Shown here piece by piece: positions 2,677 through 64,000 of a stretch of 64,000 bases of DNA. Each line of letters starts with the position of its first letter. Position 1 is the stretch's first letter. This DNA is from Patescibacteria group bacterium (lineage in GTDB: Bacteria; Patescibacteriota; Patescibacteriia; Patescibacteriales; JBAZCA01): positions 689 through 64,688 of the forward strand of contig JBAZCA010000003.1 in NCBI GenBank assembly GCA_041671125.1, written 5' to 3'. The notes below the pieces were generated by a model. That model did not search any database. It had not been told where the DNA came from and saw only the letters and a list, made by a program, of their open reading frames with translations. Both the position numbers and the translations under genes were made by a program.

Positions 2677-3402
2677 ATGTCCGGACACTCCAAATGGGCG
2701 ACAACCAGAAGGCAAAAGGCCGTCGTTGACGCGAAAAAAGGTGCAATTTTTACAAAACTAGGCAACCTGATTACCATAGCGGCGAGGGAAAAGGGCGGCG
2801 ATCCGGCTATTAATTTTTCTTTGCGCATTGCCATAGAAAAAGCCAAAGCCGCCAATATGCCCAAAGATAATATTGAGCGGGCGGTTAAGCGCGGCACCGG
2901 AGAACTCTCCGGCGCCGAGATTGCCGAAATCTATTACGAGGCGATCGGCCCGGCCAATTCGCAATTCATCGTAAAGTCCTTAACCGACAACCGCAACCGC
3001 TCCGCCTCAAACATCCGCCATATTTTTACAAAGCACGGCGGCCAGTTCGGCGCCGTCGGTTGGAATTTTGGAAAAAAAGGCATTATAAGAATTGCGAATG
3101 AAGAATTAAAAAATAAGAATATAAATCCGGAAGAATTAGAGCTGGAATTGATTGATGCGGGAATAGATGATTTTATAAAGGAGGAGGAAGGAATAACAAT
3201 TTACACCACCATGGACAATCTTCAGAAAATCCGGGAATGGCTGGAAACGAAAAAAATTTCCGTTGAATCGGCAGAAATTGAATTTGTCGCTAAAGATAGC
3301 CTCCAGGTCGGCGGTGAAGACCGGGAAAAATTGGAAAAAATCATTGAAGAACTGGAGGATAATGAGGATGTTTCCGATTATTACGCCAACGTCAATATCT
3401 AA
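2677..3402 (+). CDS. yebC: YebC/PmpR family DNA-binding transcriptional regulator
   Basis: Hallmark N-terminus MSGHSKWATTRRQKAVVDAKKGAIFTKL; 241 aa. Confidence 0.9.
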   Translation: MSGHSKWATTRRQKAVVDAKKGAIFTKLGNLITIAAREKGGDPAINFSLRIAIEKAKAANMPKDNIERAVKRGTGELSGAEIAEIYYEAIGPANSQFIVKSLTDNRNRSASNIRHIFTKHGGQFGAVGWNFGKKGIIRIANEELKNKNINPEELELELIDAGIDDFIKEEEGITIYTTMDNLQKIREWLETKKISVESAEIEFVAKDSLQVGGEDREKLEKIIEELEDNEDVSDYYANVNI

Positions 3403-3474
3403 TGGGAGCCAAACATTTAAACGATTTATCTCAGCTTAGCGCGGCAGAATAAGGTCTTTCTAATATTTATCATT

Positions 3475-4005
3475 ATGCAAATATTTCTGTCATTCGCCGG
3501 TATTGTCATTTTTCTTGAAATTATTTTTGTTATCGTCGCTTTCTGGACATTCTTCACTATCTTTTTCACCCGGGTTCCTTTCGCGCCGACGCCGAAAAAA
3601 AACTTTAAACAGATTTTTAACGAGCTTGATCTCCGGCCGGGCGCCGAAATTTACGATTTAGGCTGTGGCGACGGCAGTTTTTTGTTTGAAGCCGAAAGGC
3701 TCGGTTTTAGAGCCTCAGGCTTTGAGCTTTCCCCTTATCCGTATTTCCTTTCCCTTTTAAAAAAATTCCGGCTAAAAAGCCGGGTAAAAATATCCAGAAA
3801 AAACTTTTTTAAAGAAGACATAAGCCGGGCGGATGCGGTGTTTGTTTTTTTAATCGCGAGCATCATGACAAAAGTCGGCGAAAAGCTGAAAAAAGATTTA
3901 AAACCCGGCACTCCAGTCATTTCTTACGGGTTCCAAATTCCCGGCTGGTCGACCGTAGAAATACTGGACACAAAACCGAGTAAAACTTTTATTTACCGCG
4001 CATGA
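3475..4005 (+). CDS. membrane-anchored class I SAM-dependent methyltransferase
   Basis: N-terminal hydrophobic helix followed by SAM motif I, YDLGCGDGSF. Its stop overlaps the ruvC start (ATGA). Confidence 0.6.
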   Translation: MQIFLSFAGIVIFLEIIFVIVAFWTFFTIFFTRVPFAPTPKKNFKQIFNELDLRPGAEIYDLGCGDGSFLFEAERLGFRASGFELSPYPYFLSLLKKFRLKSRVKISRKNFFKEDISRADAVFVFLIASIMTKVGEKLKKDLKPGTPVISYGFQIPGWSTVEILDTKPSKTFIYRA

Positions 4006-59165: not shown

Positions 59166-60992
59166 CTAGGTTTCCAAAAGCTTCTTGGAAAGCTCTTTTT
59201 TAATCGTCATGGGAGTTATATTATGCGCCGTATTATACTCTTCCTGGCGTTTGCGGCGCCGGTTGGTTTCCGAGATGGCAAAACTCATGGCCGGAGTAAT
59301 TTTTTCGGCGTACATGATTACTTTGCCGTCCACGTTTCGGGCCGCCCGGCCGATAGTCTGCAGAAGCGAGGTTTCATTCCTTAAAAATCCGGACATGTCC
59401 GCGTCCAATATGGCGACGAGCGAAACTTCGGGAAGATCTAATCCTTCGCGAAGGAGATTAATCCCGACGATTACGTCAACTTTCCCGCTTCTTAAATCAT
59501 TTAAAATATCCACCCGATCCAAAGTGTCAATTTCGCTATGTAAATATTTAACTTTTATGAGGTTCTCGGTAAGGTATTCGGCGAGTTCTTCGGCCATCCG
59601 CTTAGTCAGGGTGGTAACGAGCGCCCGCTGTTTTTTTTCCACTCTCAATTTAATCTCTTTAATTAAATCTTCCAGCTGGTTTTTTCCCGGCCGGACAAAA
59701 ATTTCCGGATCCATAAGCCCGGTCGGGCGGATGATCTGCTCGGCTACCTGTTTTGAATTGCTGATTTCAAAAACGGACGGCGTGGCGCTCACGTAAATTA
59801 CCTTATTTATCTTTTTCCGGAATTCGTCAAAATTAAGCGGCCGGTTGTCTTTGGCCGACGGCAGGCGAAAACCGAAATTAACGAGGGTTTCCTTTCTTGA
59901 CTGGTCGCCAGCGTACATCCCCCGAATCTGCGGCAGGGTAACGTGCGACTCGTCAATAAACAGAAGATAATCCCTAGGGAAAAAATCTATAAGCGTTGAA
60001 GGCGGTTCGCCCGGAGCGCGGCCTGAAAGATGCCGCGAATAATTTTCAATGCCGTTGCAGTAGCCTACCTGCTCAATCATCTCAAGATCATAGTTTGTTT
60101 TCCGTTCCAGCCGATACGCCTCCACGTCCATTTTTTCTTCTTTTAATTTTTTCAGCCGTTCTTTTAATTCCTGCCGGATGCTTACGAGGGCGCCTTTTAT
60201 TTTTTCTTCCGGCGCCATGTAATGTTTGGCCGGCAGAATCATTATTTTTTCCAGTTCAATCCCGTCCTTTTCCCGAAGTCCTTCCATCCAGGGTTTTTTC
60301 GGGTCTTCAGGATGAACTGCGAACTGGGTGATCTTTTCAACCGTATCGCCGGCCATGACAATCCGGACAATAAACTCGCCGTTAACGAGAAAAATATCAA
60401 TCGTATCGCCTGATACCCGTAATTTTCCCCGGTAAAATTCTTTGTCATTCCTCTCAAACTGGATTTTGACGAGCTCAGCTAAAATCGTGTTGCGCTTCAT
60501 TTTCTGGCCGCGGAAAAAAAACCGCCCCAAAGCGAGGTAATCTTCTTTTTCGCCGATGCCGTAGATGCAGGAAACGCTGGCAATCACGATCACGTCGTCC
60601 CTGAATAATAATGACTGGGTGGCGGCATGCCGCAGGCGGTCAATTTCCTCGTTGATAGTCGCTTCTTTTTCAATGTAAGTGTCGGTATGGGGGATGTAAG
60701 CCTCGGGCTGGTAATAGTCGTAATAGGAAACAAAATAATGCACCGCGTTTTCCGGAAAAAAATGCCTGAACTCGCCGTAAAGCTGGGCGGCCAGAGTCTT
60801 ATTATGGGAAATTACGAGGGTCGGCTTTTGCGTTTTTTCTATAATCCCGGCCATGGTAAAAGTCTTTCCCGAACCAGTAACTCCGAGAAGAGTCTGGTCT
60901 TTATAGCCCTTCTTTAAGCCCTCCGCGAGTTTTTCAATCGCTTTGGGTTGGTCGCCGGCCGGCTCGTATTCTGAATGGATTTTAAATTTCAT
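59166..60992 (-). CDS. uvrB: excinuclease ABC subunit B, short form lacking the C-terminal UVR domain
   Basis: [26 protein letters not shown] and helicase motifs. Ends ...[17 protein letters not shown] at 608 aa. Confidence 0.95.
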
Positions 60993-61282
60993 AATTTTAG
61001 TATTTCCTCATAATCATCTCCTTCGGCTTTTTTTACCCTATGCCCGTACCCGCACTTCACGCAAGTATAGACTATTTTTGCCTCTCCATGTTTCAGTTCT
61101 AGCCCGGACGGTCTCATAAGACCCTGGCAGGCGGCCGCGCGATCGCCCGGGTTAACGTCAACATGCTTTGACCAAAGGCAAACCGGACAATGATCAGTAT
61201 AACCGTCGCCCTTCACCTTTACCCCGCAATTTTCGCAGGTAAAATCTTCAATCTTCCGCTGAAATTTTCTTTTTCCGGTCAT
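60989..61282 (-). CDS. RNHCP-domain zinc-ribbon protein
   Basis: [38 protein letters not shown]...CVKCG matches the RNHCP family pattern. Its stop overlaps the uvrB start (ATGA). Confidence 0.7.
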
Positions 61283-61374
61283 CTTAGATATCCCTTAAAA
61301 CGCTTTATGTTCGGTGCCTTGAAATAATATACTCTATCATGTTAATCTTATCATGTAAATGGGATTAATCAGGA

Positions 61375-61448
61375 GGACAATTAGCTCAGTTGGTTAGAGC
61401 GCACGCTTCACACGCGTGAGGTCGGAGGTTCGAGCCCTCCATTGTCCA
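61375..61448 (+). tRNA. tRNA-Val (anticodon CAC)
   Basis: 74-nt cloverleaf: GGACAAT/ATTGTCC acceptor, CACGC-TTCACAC-GCGTG anticodon arm, GGAGG-TTCGAGC-CCTCC T arm. Confidence 0.9.
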
Positions 61449-61452
61449 CGAA

Positions 61453-61540
61453 TAAGGTTCGTCCAGCATTCGCTCCCCGCCCGGCGGACTTGTCTGGCGT
61501 ATGCTGGATGCCGGGCGAGTCCACTAGTGACCACAAAAAA
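61453..61540 (+). repeat. conserved tRNA-Val trailer, copy B
   Basis: Differs from copy A only at GGAC->CCCC and CGT->TGA. Inverted relative to copy A. Confidence 0.8.
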
Positions 61541-61543
61541 ACC

Positions 61544-61730
61544 AGAGATGCGAGCATTGAAAAATTTCGGAAAAATCATGAGCGTGGAAGCCGTGTAAAA
61601 TTCCACTGTCTGAGGACCCGCCGAATCGGCGGGGACGAGTTTGGAATTTTACTAGGCTTCACAGCGAATGATCCAAAATTTTTCCTGCTCGCAATTTTTG
61701 CGCAACTTTTTCTAAAAAAGTTGCAAAAAT
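61544..61730 (+). ncRNA. about 190-nt highly structured repeat element, copy 2
   Basis: Collinear with 54133-54323. Helix changes are compensatory (gtaaaattcca/tggaattttac, gcaac/gttgc, gaagcc/ggcttc). Followed by a terminator. Confidence 0.5.
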
Positions 61731-61752
61731 CCATCGCGCAAACTGCCTCTAT

Positions 61753-61786
61753 AAAAAAACGCTTTAAACAAAAAGCGTTTTTTTTA
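61753..61786. terminator. bidirectional intrinsic terminator (end of the tRNA-Val/trailer/element unit and of clpP)
   Basis: aaaaaaacgcttt aaacaa aaagcgtttttttt; the stem is flanked by an A-run and a T-run. Confidence 0.65.
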
Positions 61787-61808
61787 ATTCACTTAAACCC
61801 GCGACTCT

Positions 61809-62387
61809 CTACTTCGTAATAATCTTATCAATAATCCCGTATTTCTTCGCTTCTTCGGCGCTCATAAAATTATCACGGTCAGTATCTTTTTCTATGGTCG
61901 CGAGTTTTTGCCCGGTGTGGCCGGCTAAAATATTATTCAGCCGGTCTTTTAATTTTAAAATCCGCTCAGCGCCGATTTTTATATCGGTCGCCTGCCCCTC
62001 AATCCCGCCCATGATCTGATGGATCATTATTTCCGAATTCGGGAGAGCGAATCTTTTGCCTTTAGCTCCGGCGGCGAGTAAAAACGCGCCCATGCTGGCC
62101 GCGAGGCCGACGCAGATTGTTGAGACGTCCGGCTTTATATACTGCATGGTGTCATAAATAGCGAGGCCGGACGAAACCGAGCCGCCCGGGGAGTTTATAT
62201 AAAATTTAATTTCCTTGTCTTTATCCTGGGCGGCTAAAAATAAAAGTTGGGCGATAACGATATTGGCCGTATGGTCGCCGATCGGTTCGCCTAAAAATAT
62301 GATCCGATCCTTTAAGAGCCGGGAATAAATATCGTAAGCCCGTTCGCCGTGGCTGGATTTTTCAATGACTGTTGGTATTAATGGCAT
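61809..62387 (-). CDS. clpP: ATP-dependent Clp protease proteolytic subunit
   Basis: [33 protein letters not shown] (catalytic Ser) and MIHQ (His). Start moved to the ATG at 62387 (MPLIPTVIE). Confidence 0.95.
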
Positions 62388-62470
62388 ATTTTTCTCATAA
62401 CTCATAACCCATATCTCGCAACGCCTGTTTATAAATCGGGTTATGGGTTGCGCTTTATGGGTTGCGAGAA
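62388..62470. repeat. inverted heptamer arrays (CATAACY/CGCAACC units) in the clpP 5' UTR
   Basis: ctcataactcataacccatatctcgcaac ... gggttatgggttgcgctttatgggttgcgag; arms are complementary. On the mRNA strand the proximal arm supplies ATG triplets at 7-nt spacing just upstream of the clpP start. Confidence 0.7.
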
Positions 62471-62480
62471 TATTATCTTA

Positions 62481-62509
62481 ACTTTAATTCAATATGCCTA
62501 TATTGTCAA
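62481..62509 (-). promoter_or_regulatory. putative clpP promoter
   Basis: On the minus strand: TTGACA (62509-62504), 17-nt spacer, TAAAGT (62486-62481). This places the whole heptamer hairpin in the 5' UTR. Confidence 0.45.
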
Positions 62510-62631
62510 AGTTTCTTTAATTTTTCATGAACATTCCCCGCGGGAAATCATAGTCCATCAAATAATCATAAAAATCATAGTTCAAGACTTATCCGCATAC
62601 CAGCCCATATTTCCATTTCCCCCGCAACATC

Positions 62632-62661
62632 TTGACAACCCTCTCTCTCGTATGCGAGAAT
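62632..62661 (+). promoter_or_regulatory. putative extended -10 promoter of the GC-rich cassette
   Basis: TTGACA (62632-62637), 18-nt spacer ending in TG-c, GAGAAT (62656-62661). Confidence 0.35.
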
Positions 62662-62667
62662 TTTAAA

Positions 62668-62992
62668 AGATGAGCCGGGGTTCCAAGTTGAAGCACCCCG
62701 CCTTAAAGAGGCTTTCCCGCCTCTTTTCATGTGGTAGCTCAAAGGGGCTACACCCGGCTCAGGCTAGTGCTCTTTTCATTTACAACGTGAACTTAACCCA
62801 AAATAGGGAAAATGCGACGCCCGGAAAGGAGAAATTAGATCGCAACGGAACACCCTCCCGGAGAATCCGGAGAGGGAGTAAAGAGGCCGCAAGGAGCCGC
62901 CTCCCTCGCATTTCGGAGGGAGGCGGCGCAACGCAAGGGCCGGTTTTATTACGGCCAAAACAACGGATTTCCAACTTTTGGAGGTGTAAAAG
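62668..62992 (+). promoter_or_regulatory. about 320-nt GC-rich multi-hairpin leader (unclassified structured RNA candidate)
   Basis: Hand-found helices:
- 62672-79/62753-60 (GAGCCGGG/CCCGGCTC), which encloses 62705-12/62719-26 and 62734-38/62747-51
- 62853-62876
- a perfect 12-bp stem 62896-907/62916-927
- 62938-62956
The leader ends in the SD GGAGGTG (62980-62986). Confidence 0.4.
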
Positions 62993-63445
62993 ATGGTACA
63001 GCAACTGATCGAGCAATACCGCCCCCCGATTCTGGCAGGAAACCGGATCCCGGCTCCCTTACTGAGTGAAGCCATGGTCGATCCTCGTCATCTGCAGCTC
63101 AACACCAAACCCTTCAACTACATCGAAGCCAAGAACCCGCTGAAACCCGACACTGTTCTGACCGTTGTTATGGAAACCGGAGCCTCTTCCCGCATCTGCG
63201 ACGCCGTGGCCAGCTCCGCTCTACTGCAGGCTCATGAAGCGCGCGTGGTCTACGTCGATGGTATCTGCTGTCTGGTTCCCGAGGGTACGCCCAACAATCT
63301 CAACAAGGGCTTCGGTGAAGATCGCAGATTCGGGCATTTCTGGCAGGGTACCGGTGCGGCGCGGATGAAGTTGCGGCAGACCGGTTGGACAAAGCTGAGC
63401 GGACATCTGGATCTCCGGCGCGACGGCAATGTCGACGGCCGGTAG
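62993..63445 (+). CDS. orphan 150-aa protein in a compositionally foreign cassette
   Basis: GGAGGTG lies 6 nt upstream of the ATG. Codon choice (CTG, GCC, AAC, ATC, CGC) is unlike neighbouring genes. Two hand-counted 60-nt lines each give 37/60 GC. No motif recognised. Several overlapping antisense ORFs look like GC artefacts. Confidence 0.5.
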   Translation: MVQQLIEQYRPPILAGNRIPAPLLSEAMVDPRHLQLNTKPFNYIEAKNPLKPDTVLTVVMETGASSRICDAVASSALLQAHEARVVYVDGICCLVPEGTPNNLNKGFGEDRRFGHFWQGTGAARMKLRQTGWTKLSGHLDLRRDGNVDGR

Positions 63446-63592
63446 CCCCACTGCTGATGGAGTACCGCCGGCTCAAAAAGCCGGCGGGTAACAAGTAGCA
63501 AAGATGGGTTCACGTTACCAAGTTCTTTTTACAATCCTCCTGAATCTATTTTCAGAGGAAGTCTCGCAATACCAGCGAGAAACGTGAATTTT

Positions 63593-63638
63593 CGCCCCGC
63601 ATCAAGCAAAGATCGCTTTTTTCGGGGTTTTTGTTTTG
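63593..63638 (+). terminator. terminator-like hairpin with a T-run closing the GC-rich cassette
   Basis: ccccg (63595-99) / cgggg (63623-27) with an internal mini-stem, followed by TTTTTGTTTTG. Confidence 0.4.
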
Positions 63639-63648
63639 TCGCGCTTTT

Positions 63649-63748
63649 GTCTGAACCACTGATTATCACTGATTAAAATGATTTCACTGATTTAATAATC
63701 AATAATCAGTGTAATCTGAGAAATCACGTGCTAATCTGTGGTTCAGAC
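63649..63748. repeat. 100-nt palindromic heptamer region upstream of the relB/dinJ-like gene
   Basis: gtctgaaccac (63649-59) / gtggttcagac (63738-48) enclose repeated cactgat(t) units and their complements (aatcagtg). Confidence 0.65.
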
Positions 63749-63818
63749 AAATAGTATTGACAATTAAATAAAAAAGCAATACACTATAATTATAAATACC
63801 AACAAAATAAATAATATT

Positions 63819-64000
63819 ATGAACGCCAACAGAGAGCAAATTCAAATCCGGATTGATTCAAAAACTAAGTCCGAGGCGAAAAAGATCCTGGATGAATTAG
63901 GCCTGGATATGAGTTCGGCAATAAAGCTTTTTTTTCGCCAGCTTATAATCGCGAGAAATTTTCCCTGCGAATTAAAGGATGCCAACGGCTTTACCCTGCG
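63819..64000 (+). CDS. RelB/DinJ-family antitoxin (partial, runs off the window)
   Basis: MNANREQIQIRIDSKTKSEAKKILDELGLDMSSAIKLFFRQLIIARNFPCEL matches the ribbon-helix-helix DinJ pattern. Not in the ORF track because there is no stop within the window. Confidence 0.7.
   Translation, partial: MNANREQIQIRIDSKTKSEAKKILDELGLDMSSAIKLFFRQLIIARNFPCELKDANGFTL

Follow-up and report, generated by a model that had tools for sequence, protein, structure and literature searches.

The window analysed here, a 64,000-nt stretch from a metagenome-assembled genome (MAG) of Patescibacteria (candidate phyla radiation, CPR), carries beside clpP a single transcription unit that runs from a promoter through a folded 5' leader, an open reading frame (ORF) and a structured 3' domain to a terminator (Table 1). 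With about even confidence, we interpret this unit as an autonomous, lineage-restricted mRNA gene whose structured untranslated regions (UTRs) act in cis and whose product is a small, basic, diversifying protein. An initial annotation, made from the sequence alone, had proposed either a horizontally acquired small gene under RNA-level control or a new RNA-protein module, and had left room for a 1-kb structured RNA with a fortuitous ORF. The promoter-to-terminator layout and the structured UTRs that it described hold up, and the unit may be an RNA-protein module.

The unit differs sharply from its surroundings in composition. The jump in GC that had been counted by hand is real: GC reaches 0.617 at 63200-63499, and the 400-nt peak over the unit (0.593) is the highest of the whole window (mean 0.444, sd 0.048). 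This abrupt change is the sole point in favour of an assembly chimera at the GC boundaries, and joins near 62600 and 63650 had been named as possible artefacts. An independent assembly, Logan contig L003, is identical to window positions 62459-64000, with 0 mismatches over 1542 nt, and crosses both boundaries. In addition, contigs from other samples carry homologous units adjoining clpP. A chimeric join is excluded; the unit is not a misassembly, and the probability of that explanation is practically nil.

Distribution of the unit beside clpP

Relatives of the ORF product were sought with a word-index search over 5.8 billion clusters, a repeat with a profile and an exhaustive HMMER search over 1.84 billion representatives. 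Among ~15 billion proteins, three distinct members of what we call type A were found: the window's own protein, P0002 (50% identity; loci L001, L002, L004 and L006) and P0003 (locus L005). Peptide and leader patterns run against species-representative genomes and JGI metagenome contigs gave no new copies. No relatives were retrieved by pattern scans of viral contigs or by BLAST against phages and plasmids, and a full-text literature search returned nothing relevant. All three type-A members come from closely related Patescibacteria, and in each of them the unit is found upstream of clpP and on the strand opposite to it. L001 and L006 have an AbiEii/AbiEi pair inserted between the unit and clpP. 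The clpP genes of the window and L001 are 86.6% identical, their differences falling 8/4/68 by codon position, with a nonsynonymous divergence (dN) of 0.026 and a synonymous divergence (dS) of 0.84.

Sister lineages were located via their ClpP homologues. Those with 90-94% identical ClpP (L012, L007-9 and L010/11) carry a second kind of unit, type B, at the same site and in the same orientation. The type-B unit has its own promoter and Shine-Dalgarno (SD) sequence and a GC content of 55-60%. Both its ~280-nt leader (z -4.4 for folding) and its 3' region (z -5.0, with a terminator) are hairpin-rich. Its ORF begins MKTFWGMPCAFQ and encodes 158 aa in L012. Type-B units share the promoter GCGTTCATT.., a first hairpin CUGCC...GGCAG and a long closing helix CCUUGUCGC.../...GGCGAUAAGG. 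The ORF (dN/dS 0.29) is better conserved than the leader (45% identity).

The two types are unrelated in sequence. Homology between the A and B proteins was rejected, with a BLASTP E value of 0.83 and an hhalign probability below 1% in both profile-to-sequence and profile-to-profile comparisons. A covariance model of the type-A 5' domain found no other match in the window and none in the type-B loci. Both A and B units contain the 8-mer GTAACAAG, but not at homologous positions; its copy in L007 aligns to a different sequence in L012, and it is probably a chance match.

The unit is missing from more distant relatives, whose ClpP is 85% identical and whose genes around clpP are ordered differently. 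Presence in related genomes had been put forward as informative, and an A unit or a B unit of the same build stands beside clpP in all six close lineages sampled. Since every sampled close relative has one or the other, the unit looks resident, recombining at a variable site beside clpP. The earlier proposal of horizontal acquisition is unsupported: we found no donor, no mobile-element, phage or plasmid relative, and no terminal repeats or target duplications.

The surrounding region gathers toxin-antitoxin (TA) modules, namely RelB/YafQ, AbiE, a Fic fragment and a probable HEPN gene. The RelB gene that had been recognised after the unit was confirmed by Pfam on the identical contig L003. The HEPN-like gene of L001 is a call by eye from its first 32 residues. 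In L012, a gene for an NTP_transf_2/Polbeta nucleotidyltransferase and a 128-aa partner lie on the other side of clpP. At L007 3894-4488 (minus strand), a type-B ORF of 104 aa overlaps a 104-aa Fic fragment by 35 nt; the fragment carries the HPFSDGNGRAGR motif, and AbiEi/AbiEii come after it. This arrangement suggests that the 3' part of the type-B unit received an insertion. Two further variations were seen in type-A loci. Relative to the window, L005 has an extra stretch of ~200 nt (400-575) between the clpP promoter and the unit, with a GC-rich hairpin GCCTGCCTGCTCGCC...GGCGAGGCAGG and TTATGTG repeats. In L001, ~250 nt of further GC-rich hairpins with U-runs lie past the terminator (3300-3600), followed by the HEPN-like gene.

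Promoter and 5' leader

The promoter that had been proposed to open the unit (TTGACA-18-TGcGAGAAT) was recovered at the same place, and both of its hexamers are identical in the three type-A members. Across 62590-62664, the window is 96% identical to L005 and 76% identical to L001, and the spacer towards the clpP promoter is different in each genome. The conserved block directly upstream of the -35 hexamer may be a regulator site or an UP element.

The leader folds better than its dinucleotide shuffles, with z -4.29 in the window, where none of the shuffles folds as well, and z -3.08 in L001. All of the leader helices drawn in the initial annotation reappear (62671-79/62753-61, 62853-76, 62896-907/62916-927 and 62938-57), whereas no support was found for the several GNRA loops described with them. 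The 5' domain of the leader folds as a four-way junction of fixed length, with 66 nt from GGTTCCAAGT to CGGCTCAGGCTA in all type-A members, and one P1 pair is G-C, G-U and A-U across the three sequences. The hairpin at 62853 has another sequence at the same place in L001, with 2 pairs changed on both sides. The next hairpin retains its outer 8 bp in L001 and L005, and a hairpin comparable to the last one precedes the SD in type-B units. A pseudoknot between J2/3 and the P4 loop was considered and rejected, as it scored like shuffled sequence (p 0.06-0.35).

Several unpaired motifs are conserved in the UTRs: GGUUCCAAGU, CAACGUGAACUUAA, GCGACNCCCGGAAAGGA, CAAGUUCUUUUUACA and the loop AAUACCA. 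The motif at 62814-62830 pairs with CUCUUUUC (62770-77) in the minimum-energy fold. The leader and the 3' domain each have an AACGUGAAY box; GUUCACGUU is complementary to either of them. The box in the leader, CAACGTGAACTTAA, is complementary to GTTCACGTT (63508-16); its counterpart in L005 is AACGTGAGC, for which pairing is still possible through G-U. Judging from this complementarity, long-range pairing of the leader box with the 3' domain is a lead. Another lead is an anti-SD-like UCUUUU/UCCUUU segment, which could pair with the SD or with the SD-like GGAAAGGA.

A long ORF beginning at ATG 62670 overlaps the leader in the window. At the equivalent position L001 reads ATG AGC TGA, and the frame ends after two codons. 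It was rejected as a gene because it is not conserved.

The ORF and its product

The 150-aa ORF behind a perfect SD, 6 nt from its ATG, is as first described. SD, ATG and stop position are retained in the three type-A members; L001 and L005 have AAAGGAGCAA as SD at a similar distance from the ATG. The GC content by codon position is 0.65/0.44/0.68, against ~0.5/0.35/0.54 in clpP and uvrB, a periodicity of the coding type. Between the window and L001, conserved blocks remain in frame over indels. The frame is open in all three members, each marginal alone (single-sequence shuffle p ~0.05-0.1).

The product is recorded at NCBI as 'MAG: hypothetical protein WCW25_01360 [Patescibacteria group bacterium]'. 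It is basic (pI 8.9; range among the encoded proteins 8.9-9.6) and hydrophilic, with a grand average of hydropathy of -0.34. Pfam returned 0 families for it, and searches of NCBIfam, PHROGs, PADLOC and PDB sequences gave no significant match for either the A or the B protein. Its status as an orphan is thereby confirmed, and the faint DsrE/TusD-like look that had been noted finds no support. A likeness of VVYVDGICC to the RNase H strand motif was likewise rejected, having no Pfam support and too few residues after it. Antisense ORFs in the unit are not conserved and were also rejected.

The 3' domain and terminator

The 3' elements described from the letters were all recovered: a post-stop hairpin (63465-87), a three-way junction (63508-89) and a hairpin followed by a U-run (63594-63640). 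The region folds well beyond its shuffles, with z -4.54 in the window (0 shuffles fold as well) and z -6.6 in L001. In L001 the post-stop hairpin has 8 bp of unrelated sequence at the same position. The three-way junction encloses the unpaired CAAGUUCUUUUUACA, a hairpin at 63535-59 and a second hairpin at 63562-80, whose loop is AAUACCA. The window has a stem UCUCGC/GCGAGA where L001 has UCCUGC/GCAGGA, a difference of two pairs, each changed on both sides. The last hairpin is a probable intrinsic terminator; a simple terminator scan did not call it, as its loop exceeds the limit of the scan. The final stretch of the unit doubles, in the window, as the left arm of a palindrome.

Table 1. Features of the unit and its surroundings. 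Positions are those of the window unless a locus is named.
Feature	Position	Strand	Basis or remark
Whole unit, one transcription unit	62593-63659	+	promoter, leader, SD, ATG and ORF, 3' domain, terminator
Conserved block CCGCATACCAGCCCATATTTCCATTTCCCCCGCAACATC 5' of the -35	62593-62631	+	alignments; left homology edge of the three type-A members
Sigma-70-type promoter TTGACA-18-GAGAAT, TG before -10	62632-62661	+	10/12 matches, TG present
5' leader, ~325 nt, non-coding, hairpin-rich	62668-62992	+	start inferred from the -10
5' four-way-junction domain	62671-62761	+	consensus fold; P1 62671-79/62753-61
P2, P3 and P4 of this domain	~62680-84/62689-93; 62705-12/62719-26; 62734-40/62745-51	+	within 62671-62761
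Conserved box CAACGTGAACTTAA	62783-62796	+	repeats the 3'-domain strand AACGTGAAT (63581-89)
Conserved motif GCGACGCCCGGAAAGGA, holding SD-like GGAAAGGA	62814-62830	+	one base varies among three members
Leader hairpin CCCUCCCGGA...UCCGGAGAGGG	62853-62876	+	predicted fold
Perfect 12-bp hairpin GCCGCCUCCCUC/GAGGGAGGCGGC	62896-62927 (62896-907/62916-927)	+	fold and inverted repeat
Hairpin GGCCG-loop-CGGCC, ~35 nt 5' of the start codon	62938-62957	+	stem invariant in all members
SD GGAGGTG (62980-62986) and ATG (62993)	62980-62995	+	SD 6 nt before ATG
ORF, 150 aa	62993-63445	+	orphan, hypervariable mosaic
123-nt block in the ORF, encoding LQAHEARVVYVDGICCLVPEGTPNNLNKGFGEDRRFGHFWQ	63224-63346	+	122/123 identical to L001
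9-bp GC hairpin, 20 nt 3' of the stop codon	63465-63487	+	predicted fold
3' three-way junction, closing helix GUUCACGUU/AACGUGAAU	63508-63589 (63508-16/63581-89)	+	predicted fold
Long imperfect hairpin GCCCCG...CGGGGU, then U-run (probable terminator)	63594-63640	+	also in L001
Last stretch common with L001, TTTGTCTGAACCA	63646-63659	+	right edge of the unit
Type-B unit	L012 3830-4800; L007 4174-4770; L011 1-420; L010 1-350	-	upstream of clpP
Long imperfect palindrome of short repeats	62396-62468	-	clpP 5' UTR/start region
106-nt palindrome, arms GTCTGAAC/GTTCAGAC	63646-63751		24-nt arms 92% complementary
RNHCP-domain gene	60989-61282	-	overlaps uvrB start by 4 nt
tRNA-Val(CAC)	61375-61449		between RNHCP-domain gene and clpP

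Structure is confined to the UTRs

The body of the ORF is not structured, with z +2.1 in the window, +0.18 in L001 and +0.72 for the type-B ORF of L012. Structure is thus confined to the UTRs. As the ORF bodies fold no better than shuffles, a structured non-coding RNA (ncRNA) of 1 kb with a fortuitous ORF is disfavoured; the coding-type GC periodicity and the retained SD, ATG and stop point the same way. Within the UTRs, helices are retained despite replacement of their sequence in the post-stop hairpin, the 62853 hairpin and the UCUCGC/UCCUGC stem. Cells of the consensus structure pair in 90.9% of cases, against 39-52% with the partners slid, the structure being derived from the same three sequences.

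No known RNA family was recognised, in agreement with the initial annotation, which had looked in vain for RNase P, tmRNA, SRP RNA, T-box and cobalamin/TPP riboswitch signatures. An Rfam 15 cmscan of 61000-64000 at E<=1 retrieved the tRNA-Val and sub-threshold noise only; within the unit, the only match was a nonsense one to mir-505 on the opposite strand. At gathering score, the whole window contains 3 tRNAs only, and nothing was found in the type-B unit.

Mosaic alleles and rapid evolution

The ORF evolves ~20 times faster than clpP, with dN 0.5-0.7 and dN/dS 0.4-1.6 compared with 0.026 and 0.03. The closest pair of members switches from segment to segment. In the promoter, the leader and the post-stop hairpin, the window is nearest to L005 (96%, 81% and 89% identity, respectively). 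In the N-terminal half of the ORF, L005 is nearest to L001, and in the ORF core the window and L001 are nearly identical. This core is the 123-nt block, which shows no synonymous change between the window and L001, while the dS of their clpP genes is that given above; L005 has a shorter, diverged version of the block. Beyond the core, DNA identity among the ORFs is 40-55%, close to that of unrelated sequence.

Judging from these alignments, the simplest account of the mosaic would be repeated homologous exchange among diverged alleles. The locus would then be a recombination hot spot in a region that also gathers TA modules, which would account both for the mosaic alleles and for the near-identical tract. 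The 123-nt core may also have a function at the nucleotide level. Frequent recombination could lead to higher GC via biased gene conversion, and the raised GC of the unit may have arisen through it.

A 17-nt direct repeat was also seen in the ORF (63030-63046, TTCTGGCAGGAAACCGG; 63338-63354, TTCTGGCAGGGTACCGG). Its second copy spans the right edge of the conserved block. Conservation of the first copy does not extend to L001, and the repeat is probably due to chance.

Interpretation of the unit and alternative explanations

If the unit is an mRNA gene, its strong promoter would give rise to a transcript of ~975 nt. The 325-nt leader, with its four-way junction, three hairpins and conserved single-stranded boxes, would act in cis on translation of the ORF. 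From the pairing potential of the sequence, we infer that translation may be controlled by the anti-SD-like segment, alternating between the SD and the SD-like GGAAAGGA. The 3' domain and terminator would end the transcript and presumably stabilise it, and the 3' domain may provide, in its AACGUGAAY box, a second binding site for protein or RNA. The product would be a small basic protein under relaxed or diversifying selection with no known relatives, and its role may be conflict-related, in defence, addiction or host interaction.

Several observations weigh against this interpretation. The AlphaFold2 model of the ORF product, built from a 2-sequence alignment, has a predicted local distance difference test score of 30.7 and is unusable. 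The three sequences give no significant covariation, as their 4 double-change pairs are matched by 88/500 shuffles. In the window itself, the anti-SD pairing depends on wobble pairs. The ORF has no excess of substitutions at third codon positions (32/25/36, 10/10/10 and 46/30/39 by codon position). L005 has a frameshift inside the core, after which the original frame resumes downstream and reaches the same stop, and the type-B ORF of L007 is cut short by the Fic fragment. In both cases the UTRs persist, so the protein could be dispensable.

Part of this evidence would suit an RNA that is itself the main product. Such an RNA would have a dual function or serve as a scaffold; its conserved 5' and 3' domains would work in trans or assemble into a ribonucleoprotein (RNP), perhaps together with the encoded protein, and the ORF would be secondary and could vary or decay freely. 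Besides the interrupted ORFs with intact leaders and the absence of third-position bias, a comparison of the window with L005 shows stronger conservation of the UTR motifs and promoter than of the ORF, both UTRs contain the AACGTGAAY box, whose complement is also present, and the encoded proteins are basic, at the pI values given above. We nevertheless regard an RNA product as unlikely. No terminator or obvious processing signal separates leader and ORF, the SD and ATG are conserved in all members, and the composition of the ORF is of the coding type. In the type-B units the ORF is better conserved than the leader, and no Rfam family matches.

A module resembling TA or abortive-infection systems, in which a small, harmful protein would be kept in check by the structured RNA, acting in cis or as an antitoxin, is rather less probable still. 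The unit sits in a variable region among RelB/YafQ, AbiEi/AbiEii, Fic and a putative HEPN gene, it combines a strong promoter with a long leader able to pair with the SD, and its protein evolves fast and is occasionally disrupted, as is often seen in conflict genes. However, the leader has no tandem repeats and no terminator before the ORF, unlike ToxIN, no antisense promoter lies within the unit, and the protein is not small and hydrophobic. PADLOC, Pfam and NCBIfam gave no match, and occurrence in all six sampled close lineages would be unusual for accessory defence cargo.

It is a more speculative proposal, and a doubtful one, that A and B together stand for a type of locus not described before in Patescibacteria, with interchangeable, idiomorph-like cassettes at a fixed chromosomal site. 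In each cassette, conserved structured RNA ends would frame a small, diversifying, recombining ORF, and RNA and protein would cooperate, for example as a self-binding RNP for strain recognition, defence or addiction. The 123-nt tract would then result either from a function at the RNA level or from segments still being exchanged among strains that occur together.

Very unlikely is a gene recently acquired from a GC-richer donor or a mobile element. Its GC (0.59 compared with 0.44 for the window) and third-position GC (0.68 compared with ~0.54) would fit such an origin, as would its absence from more distant relatives, whose clpP gene order differs, and its place in a variable region. Yet the searches of ~15 billion proteins, species-representative genomes, viral contigs, phages and plasmids turned up no relative in other lineages. 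The unit lacks terminal repeats, whether inverted or direct; no integrase was seen, and no tRNA lies next to it. Its promoter looks native and has the TTGACA -35 that clpP and relB also have, and position and orientation are constant in all close relatives.

Comparison with known systems

As an mRNA gene with cis-acting UTRs, the unit would resemble the structured mRNA leaders of riboswitches, protein-binding autoregulatory genes and cspA-type genes. The unit shares with them a long folded 5' UTR leading from a strong promoter to SD and ATG, a compact multi-helix 5' domain of fixed length, conserved single-stranded motifs and possible alternative pairing of the SD. Unlike them, it has no Rfam match and no terminator/antiterminator before the ORF, its regulated gene is an orphan, which leaves the genomic context uninformative, and a second conserved structured domain follows the ORF.

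In type III TA systems (ToxIN, CptIN and TenpIN), one promoter also drives a structured RNA followed by a protein of ~150-170 aa, in similar defence/TA surroundings. The unit, however, lacks the tandem antitoxin repeats, the terminator between RNA and ORF, and a ToxN/AbiQ-like protein. Tandem Repeats Finder (minimum score 30) detected no array in 62600-63000, and the repeat search agrees. Pfam, PADLOC, NCBIfam, PHROGs and PDB sequences yielded no significant match to a ToxN/AbiQ/CptN-type toxin. Type I TA systems such as hok/sok likewise have a highly structured mRNA; the 5' box AACGUGAAC of the unit is complementary to the 3' box GUUCACGUU, so its ends could pair, and its SD can be sequestered. 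In contrast to type I toxins, its product is hydrophilic and of 150 aa rather than a small membrane peptide, and the promoter scan found no promoter-like site on the minus strand inside 62600-63650.

The agr and com pherotype loci and idiomorph-like alleles have conserved regulatory ends around a hypervariable mosaic coding part, as the unit does, and unrelated allele types at one chromosomal site, as in A and B. Features of peptide signals, kinases, immunity or surface proteins are lacking in the unit, and nothing ties it to signalling or recognition. With large ncRNAs (OLE, GOLLD, ROOL, HEARO and raiA) it shares the form of a GC-rich, hairpin-rich island of ~1 kb in an AT-richer genome. It differs from them in having no covariance-model match and a central 450 nt that is unstructured, with coding-type periodicity.

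Mobile and hypervariable elements were also considered. An integron cassette was rejected on account of the unit's own conserved promoter and of the palindrome arms GTCTGAAC/GTTCAGAC, which by eye are off the core-site consensus RYYYAAC...GTTRRRY; no integrase was seen near the unit. A target of a diversity-generating retroelement (DGR) was rejected because no template/variable repeat pair occurs in 62300-64000 and the neighbours of the unit in the window are clpP, RNHCP, uvrB and relB. No second copy of any part of the unit exists within the 64-kb window. With no repeats bracketing 62593-63659 and no phage, plasmid or viral match, an insertion sequence, miniature inverted-repeat transposable element or other mobile element was also rejected. 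All of these look-alike systems (type III and type I TA, integron cassette, DGR, mobile element and large ncRNA) fail on their defining features.

If the UTR domains are functional, they would add new structured RNA motifs to a phylum with hardly any described regulatory RNA. The locus bears on strain-level diversification in reduced, symbiotic genomes, with two unrelated allele types at one site amid TA modules. Its reach is limited: the known sequences number three of type A and three of type B, all from one genus-level clade. The unit is a curiosity, not a demonstrated new mechanism.

Flanking palindromes and neighbouring genes

The palindromes that had been seen to bracket the unit were confirmed at 62396-62468 and 63646-63751. 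The left one covers the first ATG of clpP and is situated between the start codons of that gene and its promoter (-35 at 62509). It contains TTATGGGTTGCG twice (62441-52 and 62455-66) and CTCATAA 3.4 times. A palindrome of unrelated heptamers (ACAGACA...) is found at the same place in L005 and none in L012. It could be an operator or an RNA element controlling clpP.

The right palindrome, between the terminator of the unit and the relB promoter (TTGACA at 63757), has four copies of CACTGATTT. It shows a weak, sub-threshold match to RNA-OUT (23 bits, against a gathering score of 41). It is absent in L001, where the left arm TTTGTCTGAACCA is shared. On the far side of clpP, the RNHCP-domain gene and uvrB form a pair that is also present in L012.

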